Source: a virus
Taxonomy: Duplodnaviria > Heunggongvirae > Uroviricota > Caudoviricetes
IMG/VR virus record: IMGVR_UViG_3300045988_113752
Location: 1 to 24,654 of that record
Length of the DNA: 24,654 nt
Reading direction: 5' to 3' (one strand)
The stretch's first letter is position 1. Every line of letters starts with the position of its first letter. Positions 1,334 to 23,404 of the stretch are shown in pieces. The notes under the pieces were generated by a model that did not search any database, was not told where the DNA came from, and saw only the letters and a list, made by a program, of their open reading frames with translations. Position numbers and translations under genes: made by a program.

Positions 1334-1349
1334 CGCCTGTTATTAACCT

Positions 1350-1369
1350 GTGGGTCGTAACAGACCCAC
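1350..1369 (+). promoter_or_regulatory. Stem-loop after the capsid gene (GTGGGTC-gtaaca-GACCCAC), no U-tract
   Basis: Perfect 7-bp stem with 6-nt loop, 17 nt after the capsid stop. Not followed by a T-run, so more likely an RNA stability or processing element than an intrinsic terminator. Confidence 0.35.
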
Positions 1370-13023: not shown

Positions 13024-13455
13024 CTATTCAGGTATTTCAATTCCAAAACCATCTGCATCCCATGAGTTTTCACAGATGATGTAACCTAGTTCATTGAGCT
13101 TATTAAATGTTTTTTCAAAGATGATCTGGTAATCATTATCTGCAAGTGATTCCAGTTCAAGGTCATTAAGGTTTATATAAAAACTTGTATGTCCAAGTGT
13201 TATTTTCTTATTAATTTCATTAAAGGTTCTTTTGAAAATAATATTTGATATTTCATGTCGTGCATTGTTTGCAATGATTTTTGCTTCATAAGCAGAAATT
13301 ACGTCATCTTCATGAATATCTTTCAGAAAACTGGTGTCAAGACGTTGTACTATTTCAGCGTTCATTGATCGCTTATTGGCTTTTGCAGAAATTTCTATTT
13401 TTTCTTTTACTTCGACGGGAAGTCTGATCCTTAGTTGTGGATCTTCTCTGCTCAT
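13024..13455 (-). CDS. Mnt-like ribbon-helix-helix repressor with ~100-aa C-terminal extension
   Basis: N-terminus MSREDPQLRIRLPVEVKEKIEISAKANKRSMNAEIVQRL resembles P22 Mnt/Arc RHH domains as I recall them. Transcribed divergently from the Arc-like gene. Start chosen at the ATG giving MSRED; the track ORF starts 10 codons upstream. Confidence 0.55.
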   Translation of the reverse strand: MSREDPQLRIRLPVEVKEKIEISAKANKRSMNAEIVQRLDTSFLKDIHEDDVISAYEAKIIANNARHEISNIIFKRTFNEINKKITLGHTSFYINLNDLELESLADNDYQIIFEKTFNKLNELGYIICENSWDADGFGIEIPE

Positions 13456-13575
13456 GTTCTTCACCAAATATTGAGTTACTTGCAATGATTGAAGTATGCC
13501 TCACCGTGTGCTTGACATCAATGACGCACGGTGTGACAATTATTTTGCCCCACGGTGGGGCTAAGGAGATATGAA
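13456..13575. promoter_or_regulatory. Divergent promoter/operator region between the Mnt-like and Arc-like genes
   Basis: TTGACA at 13512-13517 with a weak -10 (gacaat) 17 nt downstream on the plus strand. Inverted half-sites CACCGTG (13502-13508) and CACGGTG (13527-13533) flank the -35; a third CACGGTG lies at 13551-13557. Confidence 0.45.
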
Positions 13576-13743
13576 ATGCAAAAAGCAAAAGAGATGTGTC
13601 AACGACGAGTTCGTTTTCCGGACGATGTGAAGTTAGCTATTGAAAGAAATGGCGAAAAAGAATGCCGAAAGTTCAATACAGAGATTATCTATCAGCTGAG
13701 GAAAGTGTATGGACTCACTGGTGAGAAGAATAGCGTGGCATAA
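13576..13743 (+). CDS. Arc-like ribbon-helix-helix repressor
   Basis: 55 aa from ATG 13576, with taaggag 8 nt upstream. RVRFPDDVKLAIERNGEKECRKFNTEIIYQLRKVY resembles P22 Arc. Directly upstream of the antirepressor gene. Confidence 0.6.
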   Translation: MQKAKEMCQRRVRFPDDVKLAIERNGEKECRKFNTEIIYQLRKVYGLTGEKNSVA

Positions 13744-13814
13744 AACAGCGAAGCCCCACGGTGGCCAGACCGTCAGGGCTTCAGTATCGTAAAACTACGT
13801 ATAGGAATTAACGA
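13742..13814 (-). ncRNA. Candidate sar-like antisense RNA covering the antirepressor RBS/start
   Basis: Minus-strand promoter TTGATA-N17-TATACT (plus coordinates 13849-13844 and 13826-13821) fires antisense across the ant RBS (13802-13805) and ATG (13816). A strong hairpin (13750-13782) is followed on the minus strand by GCUGUUUUA. Predicted length is ~70 nt. Confidence 0.4.
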
Positions 13815-13815
13815 C

Positions 13816-14754
13816 ATGACGAGTATAGCAACAGCAGTATCTACTATCAACGTGCCATTCCACGGCGCAGAGCTTTATGTTGTCAATCACAACGGCGAAC
13901 CGTATACCCCAATGAAACCTATCGTTGAGGGAATGGGGCTAGACTGGAAATCTCAACATAAGAAGATTTCTCAACGCTTCTCGAAGGGTATGGTGGAAAT
14001 CACCATACCTTCTGCCGGTGGGGTGCAAGCCATGATTTGTATGGCTTTACGAAAATTGGCAGCTTGGTTGAACAGCATCAGCCCTAACAAAGTCCGCCCT
14101 GAAATCCGCGACAAGGTAATCCAGTATCAGGAAGAGTGTGACGATGTGCTCTACGAGTACTGGACTAAAGGCCATGTGGTTAACCCACGCAAAGCTAAAA
14201 AGGCGTTGCCGGGTAAAATAACAACTGAACAGCAGGAAGCCATTAAACAACTCGTCATGAGTCGCGGTCAGTCTCTGCCAAAAGAAAAACAGGCTAAGGC
14301 GATGATCACCATGTGGTCGTCACTGAAATCTCATTTTGGCTGTTCGTACAAAGAAATTGGTGAAGATCAATTTGCCGAAGCGTTGTCTCTTGTTGCTCGG
14401 GTTCCGCTTGAAGGGGAGTATCTCCCTGCTGGATCTGCATCAGAGAATGATGAAGTGGCAGTCAAGATGTTAGATGCGCTTCGTGAGGCAATTAAAACAC
14501 AGACAAAATGTTATGGTTATCCACTGAAGCCCGGCTACCGTAGCCTGATTCATTCGCCGTCTGGTGTTCTCGGCCTGACGGAGAACTCACTGCTGATGAA
14601 TCTGCTGAACCAGTTACAGGAAGACGGGCACGATGTATCGGGCGCGGCGGCGGAGCTGACCACCATGTTCTGCTACATCGTCGGTGTGAGCAAATGCCTG
14701 CGTGATATCCAGACGCACGCGGAATACATCAACGACAAGGCAGGGTTCTTCTGA
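13816..14754 (+). CDS. Antirepressor-like protein (Ant-type N-terminal region plus shared C-terminal domain)
   Basis: 312 aa immediately downstream of the Arc-like gene, in the immI-like arrangement. The C-terminal ~78 aa are identical to the C-terminus of the Bro-N protein at 16006..16698. Confidence 0.55.
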   Translation: MTSIATAVSTINVPFHGAELYVVNHNGEPYTPMKPIVEGMGLDWKSQHKKISQRFSKGMVEITIPSAGGVQAMICMALRKLAAWLNSISPNKVRPEIRDKVIQYQEECDDVLYEYWTKGHVVNPRKAKKALPGKITTEQQEAIKQLVMSRGQSLPKEKQAKAMITMWSSLKSHFGCSYKEIGEDQFAEALSLVARVPLEGEYLPAGSASENDEVAVKMLDALREAIKTQTKCYGYPLKPGYRSLIHSPSGVLGLTENSLLMNLLNQLQEDGHDVSGAAAELTTMFCYIVGVSKCLRDIQTHAEYINDKAGFF

Positions 14755-14774
14755 CAGAACGGCGGCACAGGGAC
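14521..14774. repeat. Inverted repeat, left copy (~253 bp, ~97% identical to 15988..16240 in reverse complement)
   Basis: Aligned by hand: about 6 substitutions, all synonymous in the coding part, plus a small indel just after the stop codon. It encodes the shared antirepressor C-terminal domain. Confidence 0.8.
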
Positions 14775-15082: not shown

Positions 15083-15631
15083 TTACTTTTCTTCAGGTTT
15101 GTTGTCTTCAGATTTCTTCTTGATGCTTGGTTTTTGTCTAAGAACGAAAATACCAGCCACTGCAACAACTGTACCGATCACTGTGCCAGCTAGAACTTCA
15201 TGACCTGTTAAACCTAATAATGTTGCACAAGCTACTGTAAAAATAGTTGCACTCAGGCCAAACCACTGCCCACGTTTATCTCTATTAATAGCCCCGTCAA
15301 GTGCCTTTTCCTCCATTTTCTGGCGGTGAGCAAACTCCTTCTCCGTCAGCTGGAAGATGCGTTCGGGGGCATCAGGTAAAATATCCTGATACCCGCGAAG
15401 CAGATAGGGGGGAGGAAGCGGACCCTGAAACGCATGGTGAGCGACAACTATCTCCTGAATTTCAGGGCGATCAAGAACTCTTGTGAAGGCATCTGGGTGT
15501 TGAATGATCTCGTTACTTAGCCCTTCCTCAACTTCCTCGAACTCAGTTTCTTCGTTATCACTTGGTTGCCCAATAGATTTTTGCATATTTGTCGAAGGAC
15601 ATTCCTTTAGCTTCTGGTTTTCCTCTTGCAT
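15083..15631 (-). CDS. Membrane protein with acidic N-terminus and two C-terminal TM helices (DUF2335-like by memory)
   Basis: 182-aa ORF with aggga upstream. Contains a PPPYLLRGYQDILPDAPERIF motif and two hydrophobic helices near the C-terminus. Its 5' end overlaps the upstream gene by 74 nt in another frame. Confidence 0.45.
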   Translation of the reverse strand: MQEENQKLKECPSTNMQKSIGQPSDNEETEFEEVEEGLSNEIIQHPDAFTRVLDRPEIQEIVVAHHAFQGPLPPPYLLRGYQDILPDAPERIFQLTEKEFAHRQKMEEKALDGAINRDKRGQWFGLSATIFTVACATLLGLTGHEVLAGTVIGTVVAVAGIFVLRQKPSIKKKSEDNKPEEK

Positions 15632-15884
15632 TTGAGTTTTTCCCTGTCACTATTGCCCATTTTCCGCCAGCAGGCGCTGCAATTTTTTTTCCGTTCTTTA
15701 CTATATATTCAGCATAAACACGATTTTCTGACCGTCTGAGATCGTCTCCGACCATATTCATGTCTCTTGATATAACTTTGACGACAGAGTCTCGGTTTAA
15801 AGCCTTGGCATAGTTGGAGCCAGGAACGATACCCAAAGGGGTGCCAGACTCTATAGCCAGCTCCTTGACATATCTTCTGCTCAT
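15558..15884 (-). CDS. Hypothetical protein (108 aa), basic
   Basis: The track ORF starts at TTG 15899; ATG at 15884 is preceded by GAGG at 5-nt spacing. No recognisable family. Confidence 0.4.
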   Translation of the reverse strand: MSRRYVKELAIESGTPLGIVPGSNYAKALNRDSVVKVISRDMNMVGDDLRRSENRVYAEYIVKNGKKIAAPAGGKWAIVTGKNSNARGKPEAKGMSFDKYAKIYWATK

Positions 15885-15987
15885 ATGAACCTCAACCAAT
15901 CGACTTTACCAATCGGGTAATTTTAAACATGAGTATAATGCTTTTAACTGCAACGAGTGTAAACAATTATTGATAATTGTAGGCACA

Positions 15988-16240
15988 TCCCTGTGCCGCC
16001 GCCCGTCAGAAGAACCCTGCTTTGTCGTTGATGTACTCCGCGTGCGTCTGGATATCACGCAGGCATTTGCTCACACCGACGATGTAGCAGAACATGGTGG
16101 TCAACTCCGCCGCCGCGCCCGATACGTCGTGCCCGTCTTCCTGTAACTGGTTTAGCAGATTCATCAGCAGTGAGTTCTCCGTCAGGCCGAGAACACCAGA
16201 CGGCGAATGAATCAGGCTGCGGTAGCCGGGCTTCAGTGGG
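15988..16240. repeat. Inverted repeat, right copy (partner of 14521..14774)
   Basis: Reverse complement matches the left copy at ~97%. It encodes the C-terminal 78 aa of the Bro-N antirepressor. Confidence 0.8.
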
Positions 16241-16698
16241 GCGCTGTAGGTTTTGTTCTCTACCTTCATTGCCTGCATCACTGCTGATGCTGTGGCGTTG
16301 GCTACCTGGTCGGCAACCATCTTTATGCGTTCTTCCTGCGGGAGCGAGTTTTTAATGTAACTTCCGGTGCGGCGGATCTGAGGAAGAACCTCACCTGTAA
16401 CCCATTCAAGAAATCTGAATGCTCTCGTTCCCTCAGTCATTGCCTCTTTGCAACGCAGAATAAGGATGTAGAGACCTGATTCTGAAACGATGGATAGTTC
16501 TTGTATTCCACCAGGGGTCTGTATTGAATACAGCCCCTTTTTGTTCCAGCCTTTTTTATCAAGTTTTCTCGCTTGTGTAACATCAATATTCAAAGCATTG
16601 CACACATCTTTGGTGACAAACCAAGGTTCTCCGTCAATCATGAACATACGGATCTGGCAGGATGACTCAAAGGAAAAGATGGAAGGTTTGGTATTCAT
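16006..16698 (-). CDS. Bro-N domain antirepressor with shared C-terminal domain
   Basis: Start chosen at ATG 16698 (AAGGTGA 5 nt upstream), giving MNTKPSIFSFESSCQIRMFMIDGEPWFVTKDVCNALNI, a Bro-N/antirepressor N-terminal signature. The C-terminus is identical to the Ant at 13816..14754. Confidence 0.65.
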   Translation of the reverse strand: MNTKPSIFSFESSCQIRMFMIDGEPWFVTKDVCNALNIDVTQARKLDKKGWNKKGLYSIQTPGGIQELSIVSESGLYILILRCKEAMTEGTRAFRFLEWVTGEVLPQIRRTGSYIKNSLPQEERIKMVADQVANATASAVMQAMKVENKTYSAPLKPGYRSLIHSPSGVLGLTENSLLMNLLNQLQEDGHDVSGAAAELTTMFCYIVGVSKCLRDIQTHAEYINDKAGFF

Positions 16699-17011
16699 AG
16701 CGATCACCTTTGTAGTTAGGTTAATCACCACCGCTGAGACCAATCAGATGGTGGTGAACTGTGCAGAGTTGGTCTTACCGGCTACAAAGGAACCCGGCGC
16801 ACCTTTCGGTGCCCCCACACAGCCCACCATAGAATAGGTGCGCTTTACACATAAAAAAACCGCTTATGCGGCATATGTGCCTCTGTAGTAATCCGGGAGA
16901 CCAATCCCGGCACTGGATTTTGCCAGTGCCCGATTACTATGGCACAAGAGGAGTGCAATGTAAATTTACCGAAAAGGTAAATATAAGCACTCCTATTGGT
17001 AATTTCAAAAC

Positions 17012-17269
17012 TTATCTGGTTTGTTTTCGTAATTGTTCGGCACAATAGTCGAGATGTGTTTGCAGATCCTGCATAGACATCTGTGAGCTGGTGACGTAGT
17101 TAATCAGTGCAGTCAGTTCGGCAAGTGGGCCATCGACATTAAATCCATCCTTATCGAGATCCCGGAGTAATTTCATCAAGTGCGATCCCTCCACCAGTGA
17201 CCTGACGCCTCCCGGCGTGTGAATCCTTTCGGTAAATCCCTCTTCCAGTGGATAGTGATACTGCTGCAT
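17012..17269 (-). CDS. Small protein homologous to the antirepressor C-terminal domain, LexA-box controlled
   Basis: 85 aa from the second ATG (17269), which has GGAG 9 nt upstream; the first ATG (17284) has no RBS. YPLEEGFTERIHTPGGVRSLVEGSHLMKLLRDLDKDGFNVDGPLAELTAL aligns with YPLKPGYRSLIHSPSGVLGLTENSLLMNLLNQLQEDGHDVSGAAAELTTM of both antirepressors. Confidence 0.6.
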   Translation of the reverse strand: MQQYHYPLEEGFTERIHTPGGVRSLVEGSHLMKLLRDLDKDGFNVDGPLAELTALINYVTSSQMSMQDLQTHLDYCAEQLRKQTR

Positions 17270-17289
17270 CTTAATCTTCTCCATGCAAT

Positions 17290-17309
17290 AACTGTATATT
17301 TATACAGTA
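17290..17309. promoter_or_regulatory. LexA (SOS) box aACTGTATATTTATACAGTAg
   Basis: Perfect CTGT-N8-ACAG palindrome with all-AT spacer, near-identical to the E. coli LexA consensus TACTGTATATATATACAGTA. It lies 21 nt upstream of the start codon of the minus-strand small gene. Confidence 0.7.
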
Positions 17310-17345
17310 GCAAATAATTTGTTTGCTATCCAGCACGTTTTGCAA

Positions 17346-17362: not shown

Positions 17363-17465
17363 ATCTATTCATATTCACAGTCTTTCTATCCATATATGGT
17401 TTTTTGGGTAATAGAATAACCAGATATGCGGCGCAACGGGTGCTGCGACTATCTGGAGATTTAAC

Positions 17466-19766
17466 ATGACGGTCTCAACCGAAGTTGACCACAACGAATA
17501 CACAGGTAACGGCGTTACGACATCATTTCCGTATACCTTCCGTATTTTCAAAAAATCCGACCTGGTTGTTCAGGTGTCTGACCTTAACGGTAACGTTACA
17601 AAACTAGTGCTGGATGCTGGTTATACGGTAACAGGGGCGGGAACTTATAGTGGCGGTGCAGTGGTTCTTCCGTCGCCGCTTGCTGCTGGCTGGCGAATCA
17701 CGATAGAGCGTGTGCTTGATGTGGTGCAGGAGACTGATCTTCGCAATCAGGGAAAATTTTTCCCCGAAGTTCATGAGGATGCATTTGACTACCTGACGAT
17801 GCTGATCCAGCGATGTTTTGGGTGGTTCAGACGTGCATTGATGAAACCATCTTTGCTTGCAAAATATTACGATGCAAAGCAAAACAGAATATCTAACCTT
17901 GCCGATCCATCACTTGAGCAGGACGCTGTAAATAATCGCTCAATGCGTAATTATGTCGATGCTGCAATCGCCGGAGTTATTGGTGGTTTTGGTTGGTTTA
18001 TTCAGTATGGTTCTGGAGCAGTATACCGAACGTTCCAGGATAAGATGAGAGACACCGTTAGTGTTCGCGATTTTGGGGCAAAAGGCGATGGTATAACAGA
18101 TGATACATCTGCATTGATTCTGGCTGCAGAATATGCACGAGAATCATCCAGAACATTACGAGCGGAAGGTAATTTTATTATTACGGAGACATTAAATCTT
18201 CGTAATGTCAGCCTCGAAATGACCAATGCTGTTTTTACCATATCCCACTCAGGGATAGGGGTATTGCTTGGCGGGAATGCATCAAACCCTAACAACCCAA
18301 GACAAAACTTCGGAACGATTATCAGAAATTCTGGTATTTCATCTGAAACGACACCGGATATTCGTATTATCGGGGCAAAAGGGCAGCATATTAACATTGA
18401 GCGTTGCGACTACTTACAGTTATATGCAAACTCTGATGATTCAGTATATGAAACAGATTATTCTATAGCCTACTCAACCTTTAACCTGAAAAAGGTCGAT
18501 ACAATTCATTTTCTTGGTGTAGTTAGAGGTTGGATAAACGAAAACAAGTTTTACCTAAACAGGACAAATAATGTGATTATTGCTGATAATCCGTATTCAC
18601 ATAATCACAACAAGTTTTTTGGTGGAACGATGGAGAATACTGGGGTTATTGACATTCAGCGTGGTAATAATAATCATTTTTACGGACTCCGTTTTGAGCG
18701 CAGACCAGACAACCCAGATGACACACAAAGAATTAATTTTGGTAGTTATACGTGGAATAATTCTGTTCAGGCATCATGGCTTAGCTTTTCTGCATATACC
18801 AATGAACCATATAACCCAAACAATCTTGTAACTGTCACTGATAATGGTAATGGAAATGCTGTATATCATATTCAGGAAGAACTAACTAATGAAGTGTCGC
18901 TTTTTTCAGTGAGTGAGAAAACGCCATTTTTATCAAGCGTTAATATGGGAAGTTCAGATACACCTGATTATGTTACAGATGTAAAAAGTGTGCGAAATTT
19001 AATTCATCTTGTTAATGGTAGTTTTGCTATTGGACGTAACTTCAGGACAATTTGGGAATCAGGTGATATAAGCGTCAGGAATGGCGATGTGTTTGCATTT
19101 ACTTCTGATGTCAGCGCATTCCGCATAAGGGTTTATGGAATTGATGAGAATGGCAGTGTTATTACAAATGAGCCTGAAGGGATTGGTTTTCCAGGGGCTT
19201 CATGGGATGATGAAAACAGTCGTTTTACTACCCAGTCTAACATCGGTAATGCAAAGTTTAGGATAACCGACAAAGGAGGAGTAAAATCAATAAGGGTTGT
19301 CATTCTGTCGGGTGGTAATACATCTGGAATTACCTTCAAATATATCAGATTTACCGGAAGATATTATAAGGATAGTTCTGCGTATCCTCGAAGAAATATG
19401 GATGATCATAATATCCACAGGTCTGGTGCTGTGATGTTTAATTCATCACTTGATGTCAAAATGGAAAATATAGCATCAGGTGTTACCTGTTATGTAAAAG
19501 ATGCATCTGATGTTAAGGTTAATATATTAAGAAATAGATACGTTGTTAAATCGGTGTCCGGGAATACTATATATGTGCGTAACCAGGATGAAATTTCATA
19601 TTCTGGTCCTTATGATGACTTTAAGGTTGCATATACTAGCGGGGCAAAAAATATGATTTCTGATGTTTCAGGAATTTCATCTAATGCAATAAAGTTATCA
19701 GGTAGTGTTCCTTCTGAAATATCAGAAGGAAGCAATATTGATTTGATTAAAATATTAACGAAGTAG
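17466..19766 (+). CDS. Tailspike protein: gp17-like N-terminal anchor plus pectate-lyase-type beta-helix depolymerase domain
   Basis: 766 aa with GGAG RBS. The N-terminal ~150 aa follow the pattern of T7 gp17-type tail fibre N-termini. The central DFGAKGDGITDDTSAL is the hallmark of pectate-lyase-fold tailspikes. The C-terminal half is AT-rich. Confidence 0.8.
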   Translation: MTVSTEVDHNEYTGNGVTTSFPYTFRIFKKSDLVVQVSDLNGNVTKLVLDAGYTVTGAGTYSGGAVVLPSPLAAGWRITIERVLDVVQETDLRNQGKFFPEVHEDAFDYLTMLIQRCFGWFRRALMKPSLLAKYYDAKQNRISNLADPSLEQDAVNNRSMRNYVDAAIAGVIGGFGWFIQYGSGAVYRTFQDKMRDTVSVRDFGAKGDGITDDTSALILAAEYARESSRTLRAEGNFIITETLNLRNVSLEMTNAVFTISHSGIGVLLGGNASNPNNPRQNFGTIIRNSGISSETTPDIRIIGAKGQHINIERCDYLQLYANSDDSVYETDYSIAYSTFNLKKVDTIHFLGVVRGWINENKFYLNRTNNVIIADNPYSHNHNKFFGGTMENTGVIDIQRGNNNHFYGLRFERRPDNPDDTQRINFGSYTWNNSVQASWLSFSAYTNEPYNPNNLVTVTDNGNGNAVYHIQEELTNEVSLFSVSEKTPFLSSVNMGSSDTPDYVTDVKSVRNLIHLVNGSFAIGRNFRTIWESGDISVRNGDVFAFTSDVSAFRIRVYGIDENGSVITNEPEGIGFPGASWDDENSRFTTQSNIGNAKFRITDKGGVKSIRVVILSGGNTSGITFKYIRFTGRYYKDSSAYPRRNMDDHNIHRSGAVMFNSSLDVKMENIASGVTCYVKDASDVKVNILRNRYVVKSVSGNTIYVRNQDEISYSGPYDDFKVAYTSGAKNMISDVSGISSNAIKLSGSVPSEISEGSNIDLIKILTK

Positions 19767-22111: not shown

Positions 22112-22218
22112 CATGGCATTTTTCATGGTACTGATTTCCGGTGACGGTATATAAAACGGTACGAGGAAAATTGAGCTTTGGAAAAATGTTATCACTCAAT
22201 TGGTTATGGTGTCCGTAA

Positions 22219-22236
22219 ATAATTGAGTGGGAATGA
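22219..22236 (+). other. guaA: Remnant 3' end of guaA (ATA ATT GAG TGG GAA TGA = IIEWE-stop): probable prophage att junction
   Basis: E. coli GuaA ends ...PPATIEWE as I recall it. Here only the last codons are present and the frame is closed by TAA two codons upstream, so the upstream DNA is not guaA. A host-like terminator follows. Confidence 0.45.
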
Positions 22237-22262
22237 TTTTGATCCCTGCACTATGAATGAAC

Positions 22263-22292
22263 AAAACCCTCTGTTACTACAGAGGGTTTTTT
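22263..22292. terminator. Bidirectional intrinsic terminator (AAAA-CCCTCTG-ttacta-CAGAGGG-TTTTTT)
   Basis: Perfect 7-bp stem flanked by an A-run and a T-run, between convergent genes. Confidence 0.7.
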
Positions 22293-22330
22293 ATCTTCAA
22301 GAATTATAGGCTTGAAGTTACTTACATCGA

Positions 22331-22870
22331 TTAATTAAACCAGCTGTCCGATTTGTTCTCTTCTGCTTTGCCCACGCTTTTCATCAGATCGCGACCGCCT
22401 TCAGTCATATTTCTGTTGGCGTCAGCTTCAGATTGCACCACATCGGTTTGCGCAGCTTTGTGCTTCAGTTCCTGATCGATAAATTCGTTTTCTCGCTTAA
22501 CGCGGGCTTCTTCTTTTGCCAGCGCCAGTTTTTGTTTCTGAATCTCTAAGCTGTGTAGCTCATCTTCATAACTTTGATCGCGTTTTTTGTCCGCAGAGGC
22601 TTCGGCGTCCAGTTTATCCTGACGAGCTTTCTTATTTGCTGCTGCCGTTGCCGCTCTTTTGTTAGCGGCGGCCTGGGCATTTGCGCGACGTTGCTTCTCT
22701 TGCTGGATTTCCCTGTTGCGCTCCGCGACCCATTCGTCATGCTGCCTTTGCTCTTCATTTTTACCTTGCTGTTCAGCTTCTGCTACAGCAGAGAGTTGAT
22801 CCTGCAATGATGAGGCGATAGCCGGATAGCTTAAGGAGGCCAAGATGGCGCAAAGAAAAACTTTCTTCAT
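22331..22870 (-). CDS. yfgI: Periplasmic coiled-coil protein, YfgI-like (host gene)
   Basis: 179 aa with signal peptide MKKVFLCAILASLSYPAIA, then a highly charged Gln/Ala/Lys/Glu-rich sequence. Length and neighbourhood match E. coli yfgI as recalled. Confidence 0.5.
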   Translation of the reverse strand: MKKVFLCAILASLSYPAIASSLQDQLSAVAEAEQQGKNEEQRQHDEWVAERNREIQQEKQRRANAQAAANKRAATAAANKKARQDKLDAEASADKKRDQSYEDELHSLEIQKQKLALAKEEARVKRENEFIDQELKHKAAQTDVVQSEADANRNMTEGGRDLMKSVGKAEENKSDSWFN

Positions 22871-22885
22871 GACTCCTCCTGATTA

Positions 22886-23404
22886 TTAGCTCTTTTCAGG
22901 ACATTTAGTATTTGGCTGAATACGCGTTTCGTTATACGTTGTGGTAATAACAACGGCTAAACCTGTCGTAAACTGGCACTCTTTACCCACCTGGGTAGAG
23001 GTATACACTTTGGTGCCTTCCTTATATGTTAAAGAAACACCTTCCACTAAGGTTTTATCATTCACCATAGAACCCGCTGCCGCGCCTACAGCTCCGCCGC
23101 CAACTGCCCCTGCCGTCGTTCCGGAATTGCTGCCAGAACCGACGTTGTGGCCGATAACACCGCCAGCGACTGCGCCAATAAGCGCGCCGAAGGCTTGTGC
23201 GTTCCGTTTATTTTGGGAGTTGTCTACGGCAACTTTTGCGGGAAGAATGGAAATAATATTAACGGTTTTAGTTTCTTGTTTGGTATTCAGTTGATCGGTT
23301 TGATAAACATCGGCGGCATGATCGTCAGCATTTGACTGGCATCCTGCCAGAGTGAATGACGCTAACATTGCCACAGGCAGAAGACATTTTTTAAATTTCA
23401 TCAC
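22886..23404 (-). CDS. yfgH: Outer-membrane lipoprotein with glycine-zipper region, YfgH-like (host gene)
   Basis: 172 aa with LAGC lipobox and a Gly/Ala-rich segment (GALIGAVAGGVIGHNVG...GAVGGGAVGAAAG), similar in architecture to SlyB/Pcp-type lipoproteins. Confidence 0.5.
   Translation of the reverse strand: MMKFKKCLLPVAMLASFTLAGCQSNADDHAADVYQTDQLNTKQETKTVNIISILPAKVAVDNSQNKRNAQAFGALIGAVAGGVIGHNVGSGSNSGTTAGAVGGGAVGAAAGSMVNDKTLVEGVSLTYKEGTKVYTSTQVGKECQFTTGLAVVITTTYNETRIQPNTKCPEKS

Follow-up and report, generated by a model that had tools for sequence, protein, structure and literature searches.

The stretch of DNA analysed here, a viral record of 24,654 nucleotides referred to below as the window, raises the question of whether a palindrome in front of a small minus-strand gene is an SOS-controlled operator, and whether the product of that gene is an antirepressor in its own right or a detached domain that modulates larger antirepressors encoded nearby. 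The comparisons presented below make it very probable that the palindrome is a LexA box and that, together with the small gene ant, it feeds the SOS signal into the lytic switch of an epsilon15/phiV10-like Escherichia coli prophage, as in the Salmonella phage SPC32H. The original prediction of an SOS-coupled small antirepressor acting on a repressor that RecA does not cleave is thus supported by the orthology of the gene product to SPC32H Ant, by the register of the box among related phages and by a Rep repressor lacking an S24 domain in related prophages. The coordinates of the features considered are given in Table 1.

Table 1. Features of the window considered in this study, with coordinates, strand and supporting evidence or remarks.
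Feature	Coordinates	Strand	Evidence or remarks
LexA operator (SOS box), predicted, TACTGTATAAATATACAGTT	17309..17290	-	Sequence, weight matrix, conservation
ant, 85-aa antirepressor, orthologue of SPC32H Ant	17012..17269	-	PDB, tblastn and PHROGs matches
GGAG ribosome-binding site	17279..17282	-	9 nt before the ATG at 17269; invariant in 11/11 aligned relatives
Candidate ant promoter (inferred)	17304..17332	-	-35 TGGATA 17332..17327, 17-nt spacer, -10 TACTGT 17309..17304
Rep operator palindrome (predicted), TTACC-N5-GGTAA	17347..17361	.	ant-tailspike intergenic region; exact match
Second Rep operator palindrome (predicted), TTACCGAAAAGGTAA	16966..16980	.	Exact match; abuts the -10 of TTGAAA-17-TATATT
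Third Rep operator palindrome (predicted)	15906..15920		Exact match
Promoter-like TTGAAA-17-TATATT	16980..17008	-	Directly after the ant stop codon; 10/12 consensus matches
isrK-like RNA with c4-a1b1 target motif	16853..16942	-	Rfam isrK, 74.7 bits (gathering score 50)
C4 antisense RNA homologue	16747..16834	-	Full-length match to Rfam RF01695 at 78.6 bits (gathering score 45); lies ahead of the Bro-N gene
Bro-N antirepressor, 230 aa, Ant-like C-terminal domain	16006..16698	-	Pfam PF02498 Bro-N, 1.9e-13
P22_AR_N/Ant-like antirepressor gene, 312 aa	13816..14754	+	P22 immI-type module
sar RNA	13747..13814	-	P22 immI-type module
Arc-like gene	13024..13485	-	P22 immI-type module
Tailspike-type ORF	17466..19766	+	Divergent from ant
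DUF5384/yfgI-type host gene	22331..22870		Right end of the window; same host genes as at the SURV0398 flank
Glycine-zipper lipoprotein/yfgH-type host gene	22886..23404		Right end of the window

The 800 bp around the LexA box are 90-96% identical to epsilon15/phiV10-like short-tailed temperate phages of the genus Uetakevirus, the matches including Phi05_1387 B, ZX5, phiv142-3, phiV10 and TL-2011b, and a close relative of the window in E. coli SURV0398 is a prophage sitting between guaA and yfgI. Considering these Uetakevirus matches and the yfgI/yfgH-type genes at its right end, arranged as in SURV0398, the window is the right half (structural, tailspike and lysis genes) of an integrated epsilon15/phiV10-like prophage together with its host flank; a tRNA search found none. 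Of 5426 complete E. coli genomes, 531 (~10%) carry the region containing the box and ant, and in the best 15 of these 531 matches the small gene is labelled 'hypothetical protein' by RefSeq. The locus closes the virion gene block and is separated from the divergent tailspike gene by an intergenic region of 196 bp, a layout that is the same in SPC32H, epsilon15, phiV10 and ZX5, and the gene is divergent from the tailspike gene in all the phage relatives found here to carry an ant homologue.

The program-made list of open reading frames begins the gene further upstream (17012..17284, 90 aa), and the ATG at 17269 is the conserved start, giving a protein of 85 aa. This start had been proposed together with its GGAG ribosome-binding site, and both the annotated gene of SPC32H and the crystallised protein (PDB chain) begin at the equivalent codon. 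The upstream ATG at 17284 was rejected as a start, as it overlaps the ribosome-binding site and, in the Klebsiella relatives, does not stand in frame with the gene. Among PDB sequences, the 85-aa protein matched only chain E of 5D50 ('Anti-repressor protein', E 1.6e-47) over 83 residues (2-84), 5D50 and 5D4Z being the PDB entries for the SPC32H Ant-Rep-LexA switch, and it is 89% identical to SPC32H Ant. The tblastn search with the protein returned 35 phage records, with identities of 96-99% in E. coli Uetakeviruses, 89% in the Salmonella phages SPC32H, SPC32N, SPN1S and relatives (the records of SPC32H and SPC32N name the gene 'ant: anti-repressor protein'), 85.5% in epsilon15 gp19, 78-84% in Enterobacter phages and 59-64% in Klebsiella phages. 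In PHROGs the protein falls in phrog_450 (E 1e-47) and also matches phrog_15539 strongly, both of 'unknown function', with a weak match to phrog_1760, 'anti-repressor'. The Pfam and NCBIfam scans gave no credible model for Ant (NCBIfam returned nothing), a sub-threshold Pfam match to DUF724 was discarded as spurious, and Pfam detected no P22_AR_N domain in the 85-aa protein.

The original prediction had regarded the 85-aa protein as a stand-alone copy of a domain, possibly a modulator of the full-length antirepressors, and it is here that our results depart from it. Judged from its sequence relationships, the protein is a complete prototype antirepressor, neither a fragment nor a modulator, and the larger proteins are the fusions. 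A decayed piece of a larger antirepressor was ruled out by the match to the PDB Ant chain over 83 of 85 residues, and such a reading is also countered by the conservation of the gene in phages of four host genera and by its own ribosome-binding site and operator.

Upstream of ant, the minus strand reads ...gctggatagcaaacaaattatttgc, then TACTGTATAAATATACAGTT, then attgcatGGAGaagattaag, and then the first codons of the gene (ATG cag cag tat cac...). The CTGT-N8-ACAG palindrome with an all-A/T spacer, as originally described, is exact in the 20-mer TACTGTATAAATATACAGTT, whose plus-strand reading at 17290..17309 is AACTGTATATTTATACAGTA and which is contained in ctactgtataaatatacagtt (minus strand, 17310..17290); the string first printed for it had 21 letters, not 20. 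The window contains two matches to CTGTN8ACAG where 0.36 would be expected, and the spacer of the second copy (1348..1363) is G+C-rich. Scoring with a LexA weight matrix, which had been suggested as a check, relied on a symmetrised matrix for which 26 SOS boxes of E. coli were taken as known from the literature, so that the matrix is approximate; with this approximate matrix the box reached 27.0 bits and stood above all 26 training boxes, among which tisAB was the best (26.5 bits), umuDC scored 26.0, recA 22.2 and the weakest 12.9. The runner-up in the window scored 9.8 bits, the box being the only LexA-like site there, and the best score over 200 shuffles of the window was 19.9 bits. Moreover, the box is the sole LexA-like site in the whole SURV0398 prophage, and likewise in SPC32H and epsilon15, where the runner-up sites do not exceed 10.6 bits and thus fall under the weakest training site. 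Since these three genomes hold no other LexA-like site, ant is the only visible entry point for the SOS signal.

The alignment of the ant-tailspike intergenic regions of 11 phages (Uetakeviruses of Escherichia, Salmonella, Enterobacter and Klebsiella) keeps the box in register in every one of them, across the four host genera, while the flanking sequence drifts, and the scores of the aligned boxes range from 17.0 to 27.0 bits. The box of ZX5 is identical to that of the window, that of phiV10 reads TACTGTGTATTTATACAGTT, that of SPC32H reads TACTGTATGTTTATACAGTG (24.6 bits), epsilon15 carries a variant (...CAGTA), Tyrion and BUCT554 have intact boxes, and the three Klebsiella phages show a weaker form, ATGT-N8-ACAG. 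Besides, only two positions distinguish SPC32H from SPC32N over the 6.2 kb compared. One falls in codon 5 of the tailspike gene; the other, in the ACAG arm of the box, is a change from C to A that takes the box score from 24.6 down to 17.6 bits and that we take to be the published mutation that renders ant constitutive. Kim and Ryu, in their 2013 work, reportedly found the two phages to be two nucleotides apart and the box mutation of SPC32N to result in constitutive Ant. The same work is said to have established that SPC32H Rep escapes cleavage during the SOS response and owes its inactivation to the small Ant, and that LexA represses ant at a site overlapping the ant promoter.

For the window, both the binding of LexA and the exact position of the ant promoter are proposed from homology and the literature. 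A simple search for sigma-70 consensus promoters gave no call at the box, and hexamer pairs were instead picked by positional conservation, a procedure that yields weak candidates only. The pair TGGATA-17-TACTGT keeps its alignment columns in 10 of 11 relatives, within which a CTGGA.A block is invariant; it is weak by consensus (7/12 matches), and its candidate -10 coincides with the left arm of the LexA box. The alternative candidate is TAGCAA-18-TATAAA, and with either of the two the box would cover the -10 and the start region.

The gene rep is not within the window, and the data on Rep come from the related prophage of E. coli SURV0398, which occupies the same guaA-yfgI site. Its Rep homologue has 194 aa, carries an HTH_3 domain and is 41% identical to SPC32H Rep over the full length, and a search for a Peptidase_S24 domain in this homologue found none. 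In the epsilon15 record, 'repressor' sites of 16 to 17 bp are annotated with the form ATTACC-N5-GGTAAT, and in epsilon15, SPC32H and the SURV0398 prophage clusters of the core TTACC-N5-GGTAA flank rep on either side, the core also preceding terminase, portal, tailspike, lysis and replication genes there. The window holds three exact copies of this core, against a chance expectation of 0.44 for matches with up to one mismatch. In the copy between ant and the tailspike gene, ATTACC and GGTA are invariant in the 11-phage alignment, and the half-sites of the second copy are invariant in five relatives. The intergenic copy is found on the tailspike side of the LexA box, 37 bp upstream of it, and also upstream of any plausible -35 of ant. 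Its counterpart in epsilon15 and SPC32H has TTGCAA on one side and a TAAGT-type hexamer on the other, both read on the tailspike strand. A function as a co-repressor site for ant was considered, and this operator probably serves the divergent tailspike promoter rather than ant. According to what is reported of SPC32N by Kim and Ryu in 2013, loss of LexA control alone suffices for constitutive synthesis of Ant.

The switch that we propose would operate as follows. In the lysogen, the LexA protein of the host would occupy the near-ideal SOS box, which would overlap the ant promoter at its -10 and start, and keep ant silent, whereas upon DNA damage activated RecA would bring about the self-cleavage of LexA, so that ant would be transcribed and the 85-aa Ant produced. 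By homology, Ant would form a tetramer and bind the C-terminal domains of the phage repressor Rep, an HTH protein expected to be devoid of a self-cleaving S24 domain, and this binding would break the DNA-binding Rep tetramer and strip Rep off its TTACC-N5-GGTAA operators. As these operators appear to guard the early operons and several late operons in the genus, the lytic genes would then be turned on. The binding of Ant to Rep in the E. coli lineage is what we infer from homology and the literature, because Rep is only 41% identical to its SPC32H counterpart against 89% for Ant. For SPC32H itself, Rep is described as a tetramer on palindromic operators, which is broken when an Ant tetramer binds two Rep dimers (PMC9638917), and Ant binding is assigned to the same C-terminal domain that serves tetramerisation of Rep (PMC9986798).

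The unit in the window is the E. coli prophage counterpart of the SPC32H switch (Kim and Ryu 2013, J Virol 87:11775; Kim et al. 2016, PNAS 113:E2480) and, given the orthology of Ant and a box that aligns base for base with that of SPC32H, it represents an SOS antirepression system that has already been described, its mechanism being known since 2013-2016. The two share the genus, the position of the gene divergent from the tailspike gene, the LexA box in register, the operator motif and, as seen in the E. coli relatives, the type of Rep (HTH, without an S24 domain). They differ in the host, which is E. coli here, in the divergence of Rep and in the box, which is nearer the consensus in the window (27.0 vs 24.6 bits). 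The surroundings differ as well, since a convergent membrane-protein gene lies within ~50 bp after ant in SPC32H and a terminator stem-loop is annotated directly after the ant orthologue in the epsilon15 record, whereas ant in the window is followed by the isrK/C4/Bro-N module and further inserted accessory genes. The unit adds little biology, genetic and crystallographic work having already defined the orthologous switch of the same genus, and its value lies chiefly in the annotation of a common E. coli prophage gene that is labelled hypothetical, is of unknown function in PHROGs and has no model in Pfam or NCBIfam. Additionally, a guaA-integrated prophage that is SOS-inducible through LexA and Ant would be relevant to prophage induction by DNA-damaging antibiotics.

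The Ant of SPC32H is said to have been called structurally distinct from the Tum, Gifsy and Fels-2 antirepressors by Kim and Ryu in 2013. The likeness of Ant to the Tum and Gifsy-type proteins is one of regulatory logic and not of fold, and they are set side by side here by that logic alone; the phages differ in morphotype, and the PHROGs families that Ant matches strongly are of unknown function. The logic, in which an uncleaved repressor is bound by a small antirepressor under LexA repression, is the same in 186 Tum and in the antirepressors of Gifsy-1, Gifsy-3 and Fels-2 (Shearwin 1998; Lemire et al. 2011, PMC3121763; see also PMC7380047). The SPC32H system is itself cited among the LexA-dependent antirepressors (PMC7380047; bioRxiv 2025.11.27.690993).

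The Bro-N gene lies downstream on the same strand, as originally noted, and Pfam assigns its product to Bro-N. The promoter-like TTGAAA-17-TATATT site, in which TTG.AAT and TTAT are conserved in relatives, heads this neighbouring module and is outside the LexA unit. The isrK-like region that follows is a structured RNA (z = -6.2), and the c4-a1b1 motif within it scored 39.9 bits, under its gathering score of 46.7. Downstream of ant, the scan first calls a terminator-like element at the isrK hairpin with its U7 (16872..16853), so that none separates ant from the module. Homologues of the C4 RNA are also found in phiV10, ZX5, Tyrion and OXA245phi3.2, and the complete order of operator, isrK, C4 and Bro-N gene is kept in phiV10, ZX5, Tyrion and a Klebsiella prophage, being missing, among the relatives compared, from SPC32H, epsilon15 and BUCT554. 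With a promoter-like site, a Rep operator and an isrK/C4 riboregulator of its own, the Bro-N gene is, on these predicted elements, not simply part of a LexA operon. Its product is 80% identical to ORF4 of ZX5, the C-terminal halves being identical, and overexpression of ORF4 lowered lysogeny ~1000-fold in a study that attributes antirepression to this Bro-N gene (PMC9782041). In that study, the one experimental paper on an E. coli member of the group, the small ant and the LexA box went unrecognised (PMC9782041).

The module of the Bro-N gene has the same layout as the c4 antisense RNA locus of P1/P7 immI and, as regards this gene only, as the isrK-orf45-anrP locus of Gifsy-1, which comprises a promoter with a repressor operator, a1b1/isrK, a C4-like RNA and an antirepressor gene. 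The layout of P1 immI corresponds to the order operator, a1b1, C4 and antirepressor. In contrast to P1/P7 and Gifsy-1, the module in the window lies directly downstream of a gene predicted to be LexA-controlled, with no terminator between them. The Gifsy-1 study showed that the short IsrK switches on, in trans, the translation of a read-through mRNA of the downstream antirepressor (PMC4825925). Since transcription past the ant stop codon would meet no terminator-like element before that of isrK, a LexA-driven ant mRNA might carry IsrK/a1b1 as its 3' end, and the SOS response might thereby feed the Bro-N/Ant-like riboregulator too, a tentative proposal that we regard as rather unlikely. If it were true, LexA would drive a two-stage cascade of two antirepressors with one common effector domain, and the P22-type gene, a third copy controlled by Arc and sar, would contribute another input.

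Other explanations of the locus have to be weighed against an SOS switch acting through ant. That the palindrome is a chance A/T-rich inverted repeat devoid of LexA function is barely conceivable, for although the window does contain one other CTGT-N8-ACAG match, the score of the box exceeds those of all training boxes and lies far above those of the shuffles, its register is kept across four host genera and the SPC32H/SPC32N pair provides a natural box mutant. The box also lies within an intergenic region common to ant and the tailspike gene and could on that ground control chiefly the divergent tailspike/late unit, or both units, instead of ant; its edge, however, is 20 nt from the start codon of ant as opposed to 156 nt from that of the tailspike gene (17466), a Rep operator and conserved sequence intervene on the tailspike side, and the box mutation of SPC32N, as reported in the 2013 paper, leads to constitutive synthesis of Ant, so that we consider this arrangement very improbable.

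A further reading accepts the LexA-ant unit as real and holds that the small Ant of the E. coli lineage no longer controls its own Rep, serving in cross-talk to SPC32H-immune prophages or being redundant, with induction proceeding mainly via the Bro-N/Ant-like antirepressor. The disparity between Rep and Ant in their identity to SPC32H would agree with it, and so would the effect of ZX5 ORF4, which acts alone in the overexpression experiment and shares its C-terminal half with the protein of the window; trans-acting antirepressors are, moreover, documented in Salmonella prophages (PMC3121763; PMC7380047). Against this, the whole related E. coli prophage, whose Rep is without an S24 domain, has no LexA-like site besides the ant box. 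ZX5 is all the same inducible by mitomycin C, from 1e7 to 1e9 PFU/mL (100-fold) (PMC9782041), which leaves the SOS signal without another visible entry point, and the retention of ant and its box (96-99% protein identity among E. coli Uetakeviruses; the ~10% of complete E. coli genomes given above) argues for a function in cis. Overall, we judge a loss of control over the resident Rep to be quite improbable, and the SOS input through LexA and ant remains our preferred reading.

The homology between the 85-aa protein and the C-terminal domain of both larger antirepressor-type proteins, which had been pointed out at the outset, was recovered at 42% identity over the C-terminal ~75 residues of each, with E-values of 6e-16 for the Bro-N protein (16006..16698) and 3e-16 for the P22-type protein (13816..14754). 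The C-terminal 84 aa of the Bro-N protein also match 5D50_E at 1.1e-14, and the stretches encoding the C-terminal domains of the two larger genes form an inverted repeat of 270 nt that is 92% complementary. The larger proteins are, by these alignments, Bro-N and P22_AR_N fusions ending in an Ant-like domain. Like P22 immI (mnt-arc-ant with sar RNA), the window places an antirepressor locus beside the tailspike gene of a short-tailed temperate phage, and a true P22-type module, with an Arc-like gene, a sar RNA and a P22_AR_N protein, is found 2.3 kb from the small ant. The P22-type features nevertheless belong to that separate gene (13816..14754) and its neighbours, the small Ant being without P22_AR_N, and P22 Ant is governed by Mnt, Arc and sar rather than LexA and is dispensable for P22 induction (PMC7380047). 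The window thus contains three differently controlled antirepressor genes with one Ant-like domain in common, the Bro-N gene being associated with a Rep operator and the isrK/C4 RNAs and the P22-type gene with an Arc-like repressor and sar RNA, a combination that may merit a separate look.

The P22 immI-type module found at 13024..14754 contains a P22_AR_N protein whose C-terminus is a domain resembling the SPC32H Ant, and the sar antisense RNA of this module faces the leader of the P22_AR_N protein gene on the opposite strand (see table). Therefore, the prophage is one with three antirepressor-type genes, each of them differently controlled and all having one effector domain in common.

Coordinates and properties of the features identified in the antirepressor region and at the right prophage end
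Feature	Position	Strand	Details
Arc-like DNA-binding gene	13024..13485	-	PF03869, 1.2e-14
sar antisense RNA	13747..13814	-	44.8 bits (gathering score 43)
P22_AR_N protein	13816..14754	+	312 aa
DUF2335 membrane-protein gene	15083..15631		between the arms of the 270-nt inverted repeat
phrog_10654 gene	15558..15899		between the arms of the 270-nt inverted repeat; 113-aa ORF
Third exact Rep-operator palindrome, TTACCAATCGGGTAA	15906..15920		directly upstream of phrog_10654 ORF
C4 antisense RNA	16747..16834	-	within riboregulator
isrK/c4-a1b1 element	16853..16942	-	within riboregulator
Rep operator	16966..16980		within riboregulator
Promoter-like TTGAAA-17-TATATT		-	part of riboregulator
Host yfgI-type gene	22331..22870		DUF5384; after TTTCCGGTGACGGTATATAA
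Host yfgH-type gene	22886..23404		glycine-zipper lipoprotein; after TTTCCGGTGACGGTATATAA

Between ant, the gene of the 85-aa antirepressor, and the Bro-N gene lies a riboregulator (16747..17008, minus strand) of the type described for P1 immI and the Gifsy-1 isrK-anrP locus, which it resembles. This element is kept in phiV10, ZX5, Tyrion and OXA245phi3.2 and, among the relatives compared, is missing from SPC32H, epsilon15 and BUCT554. No terminator-like site was found from the ant stop codon to the isrK terminator.

Both larger antirepressor genes contribute their 3' ends to an inverted repeat of 270 nt (14486..14755 and 16005..16274; 92% complementary), which could allow inversion or gene conversion between these copies. 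The arms enclose 1249 nt, and because an operator palindrome of the phage repressor Rep stands upstream of the phrog_10654 gene there, with promoter-like hexamers (15963..15920) adjoining it, the sequence points to Rep control of this inserted accessory gene as well.

Ant and Rep have diverged unevenly between the E. coli prophage lineage and that of Salmonella SPC32H (window 17012..17269; Rep loci L013, 35417..36001, and L011, 33739..34335), since Ant identity is 89% and that of Rep only 41%, while the operator half-sites TTACC/GGTAA are unchanged. The Ant family (17012..17269) has been characterised by experiment and structure, yet an annotation gap persists in the databases: PHROGs lists it as phrog_450, 'unknown function', Pfam and NCBIfam hold no model for it, and 'hypothetical protein' is the RefSeq label of ant among the E. 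coli matches listed. The ant region was found in 531 of 5426 E. coli genomes, and Ant also went unrecognised in the ZX5 paper (PMC9782041).

The intergenic region between ant and the tailspike gene contains a perfect 10-bp palindrome, CCATATATGG (17390..17399), adjoined by a conserved TCTATTACCC block with a single TTACC half-site; in relatives the palindrome is imperfect.

The prophage right end and host flank occupy 22135..23404, beginning with TTTCCGGTGACGGTATATAA (22135..22154), which has the same letters as the epsilon15 stretch spanning its annotated integrase-binding site, located directly past the spanin genes. ZX5, phiV10 and the SURV0398 prophage are integrated between guaA and yfgI, and this layout agrees with that location.
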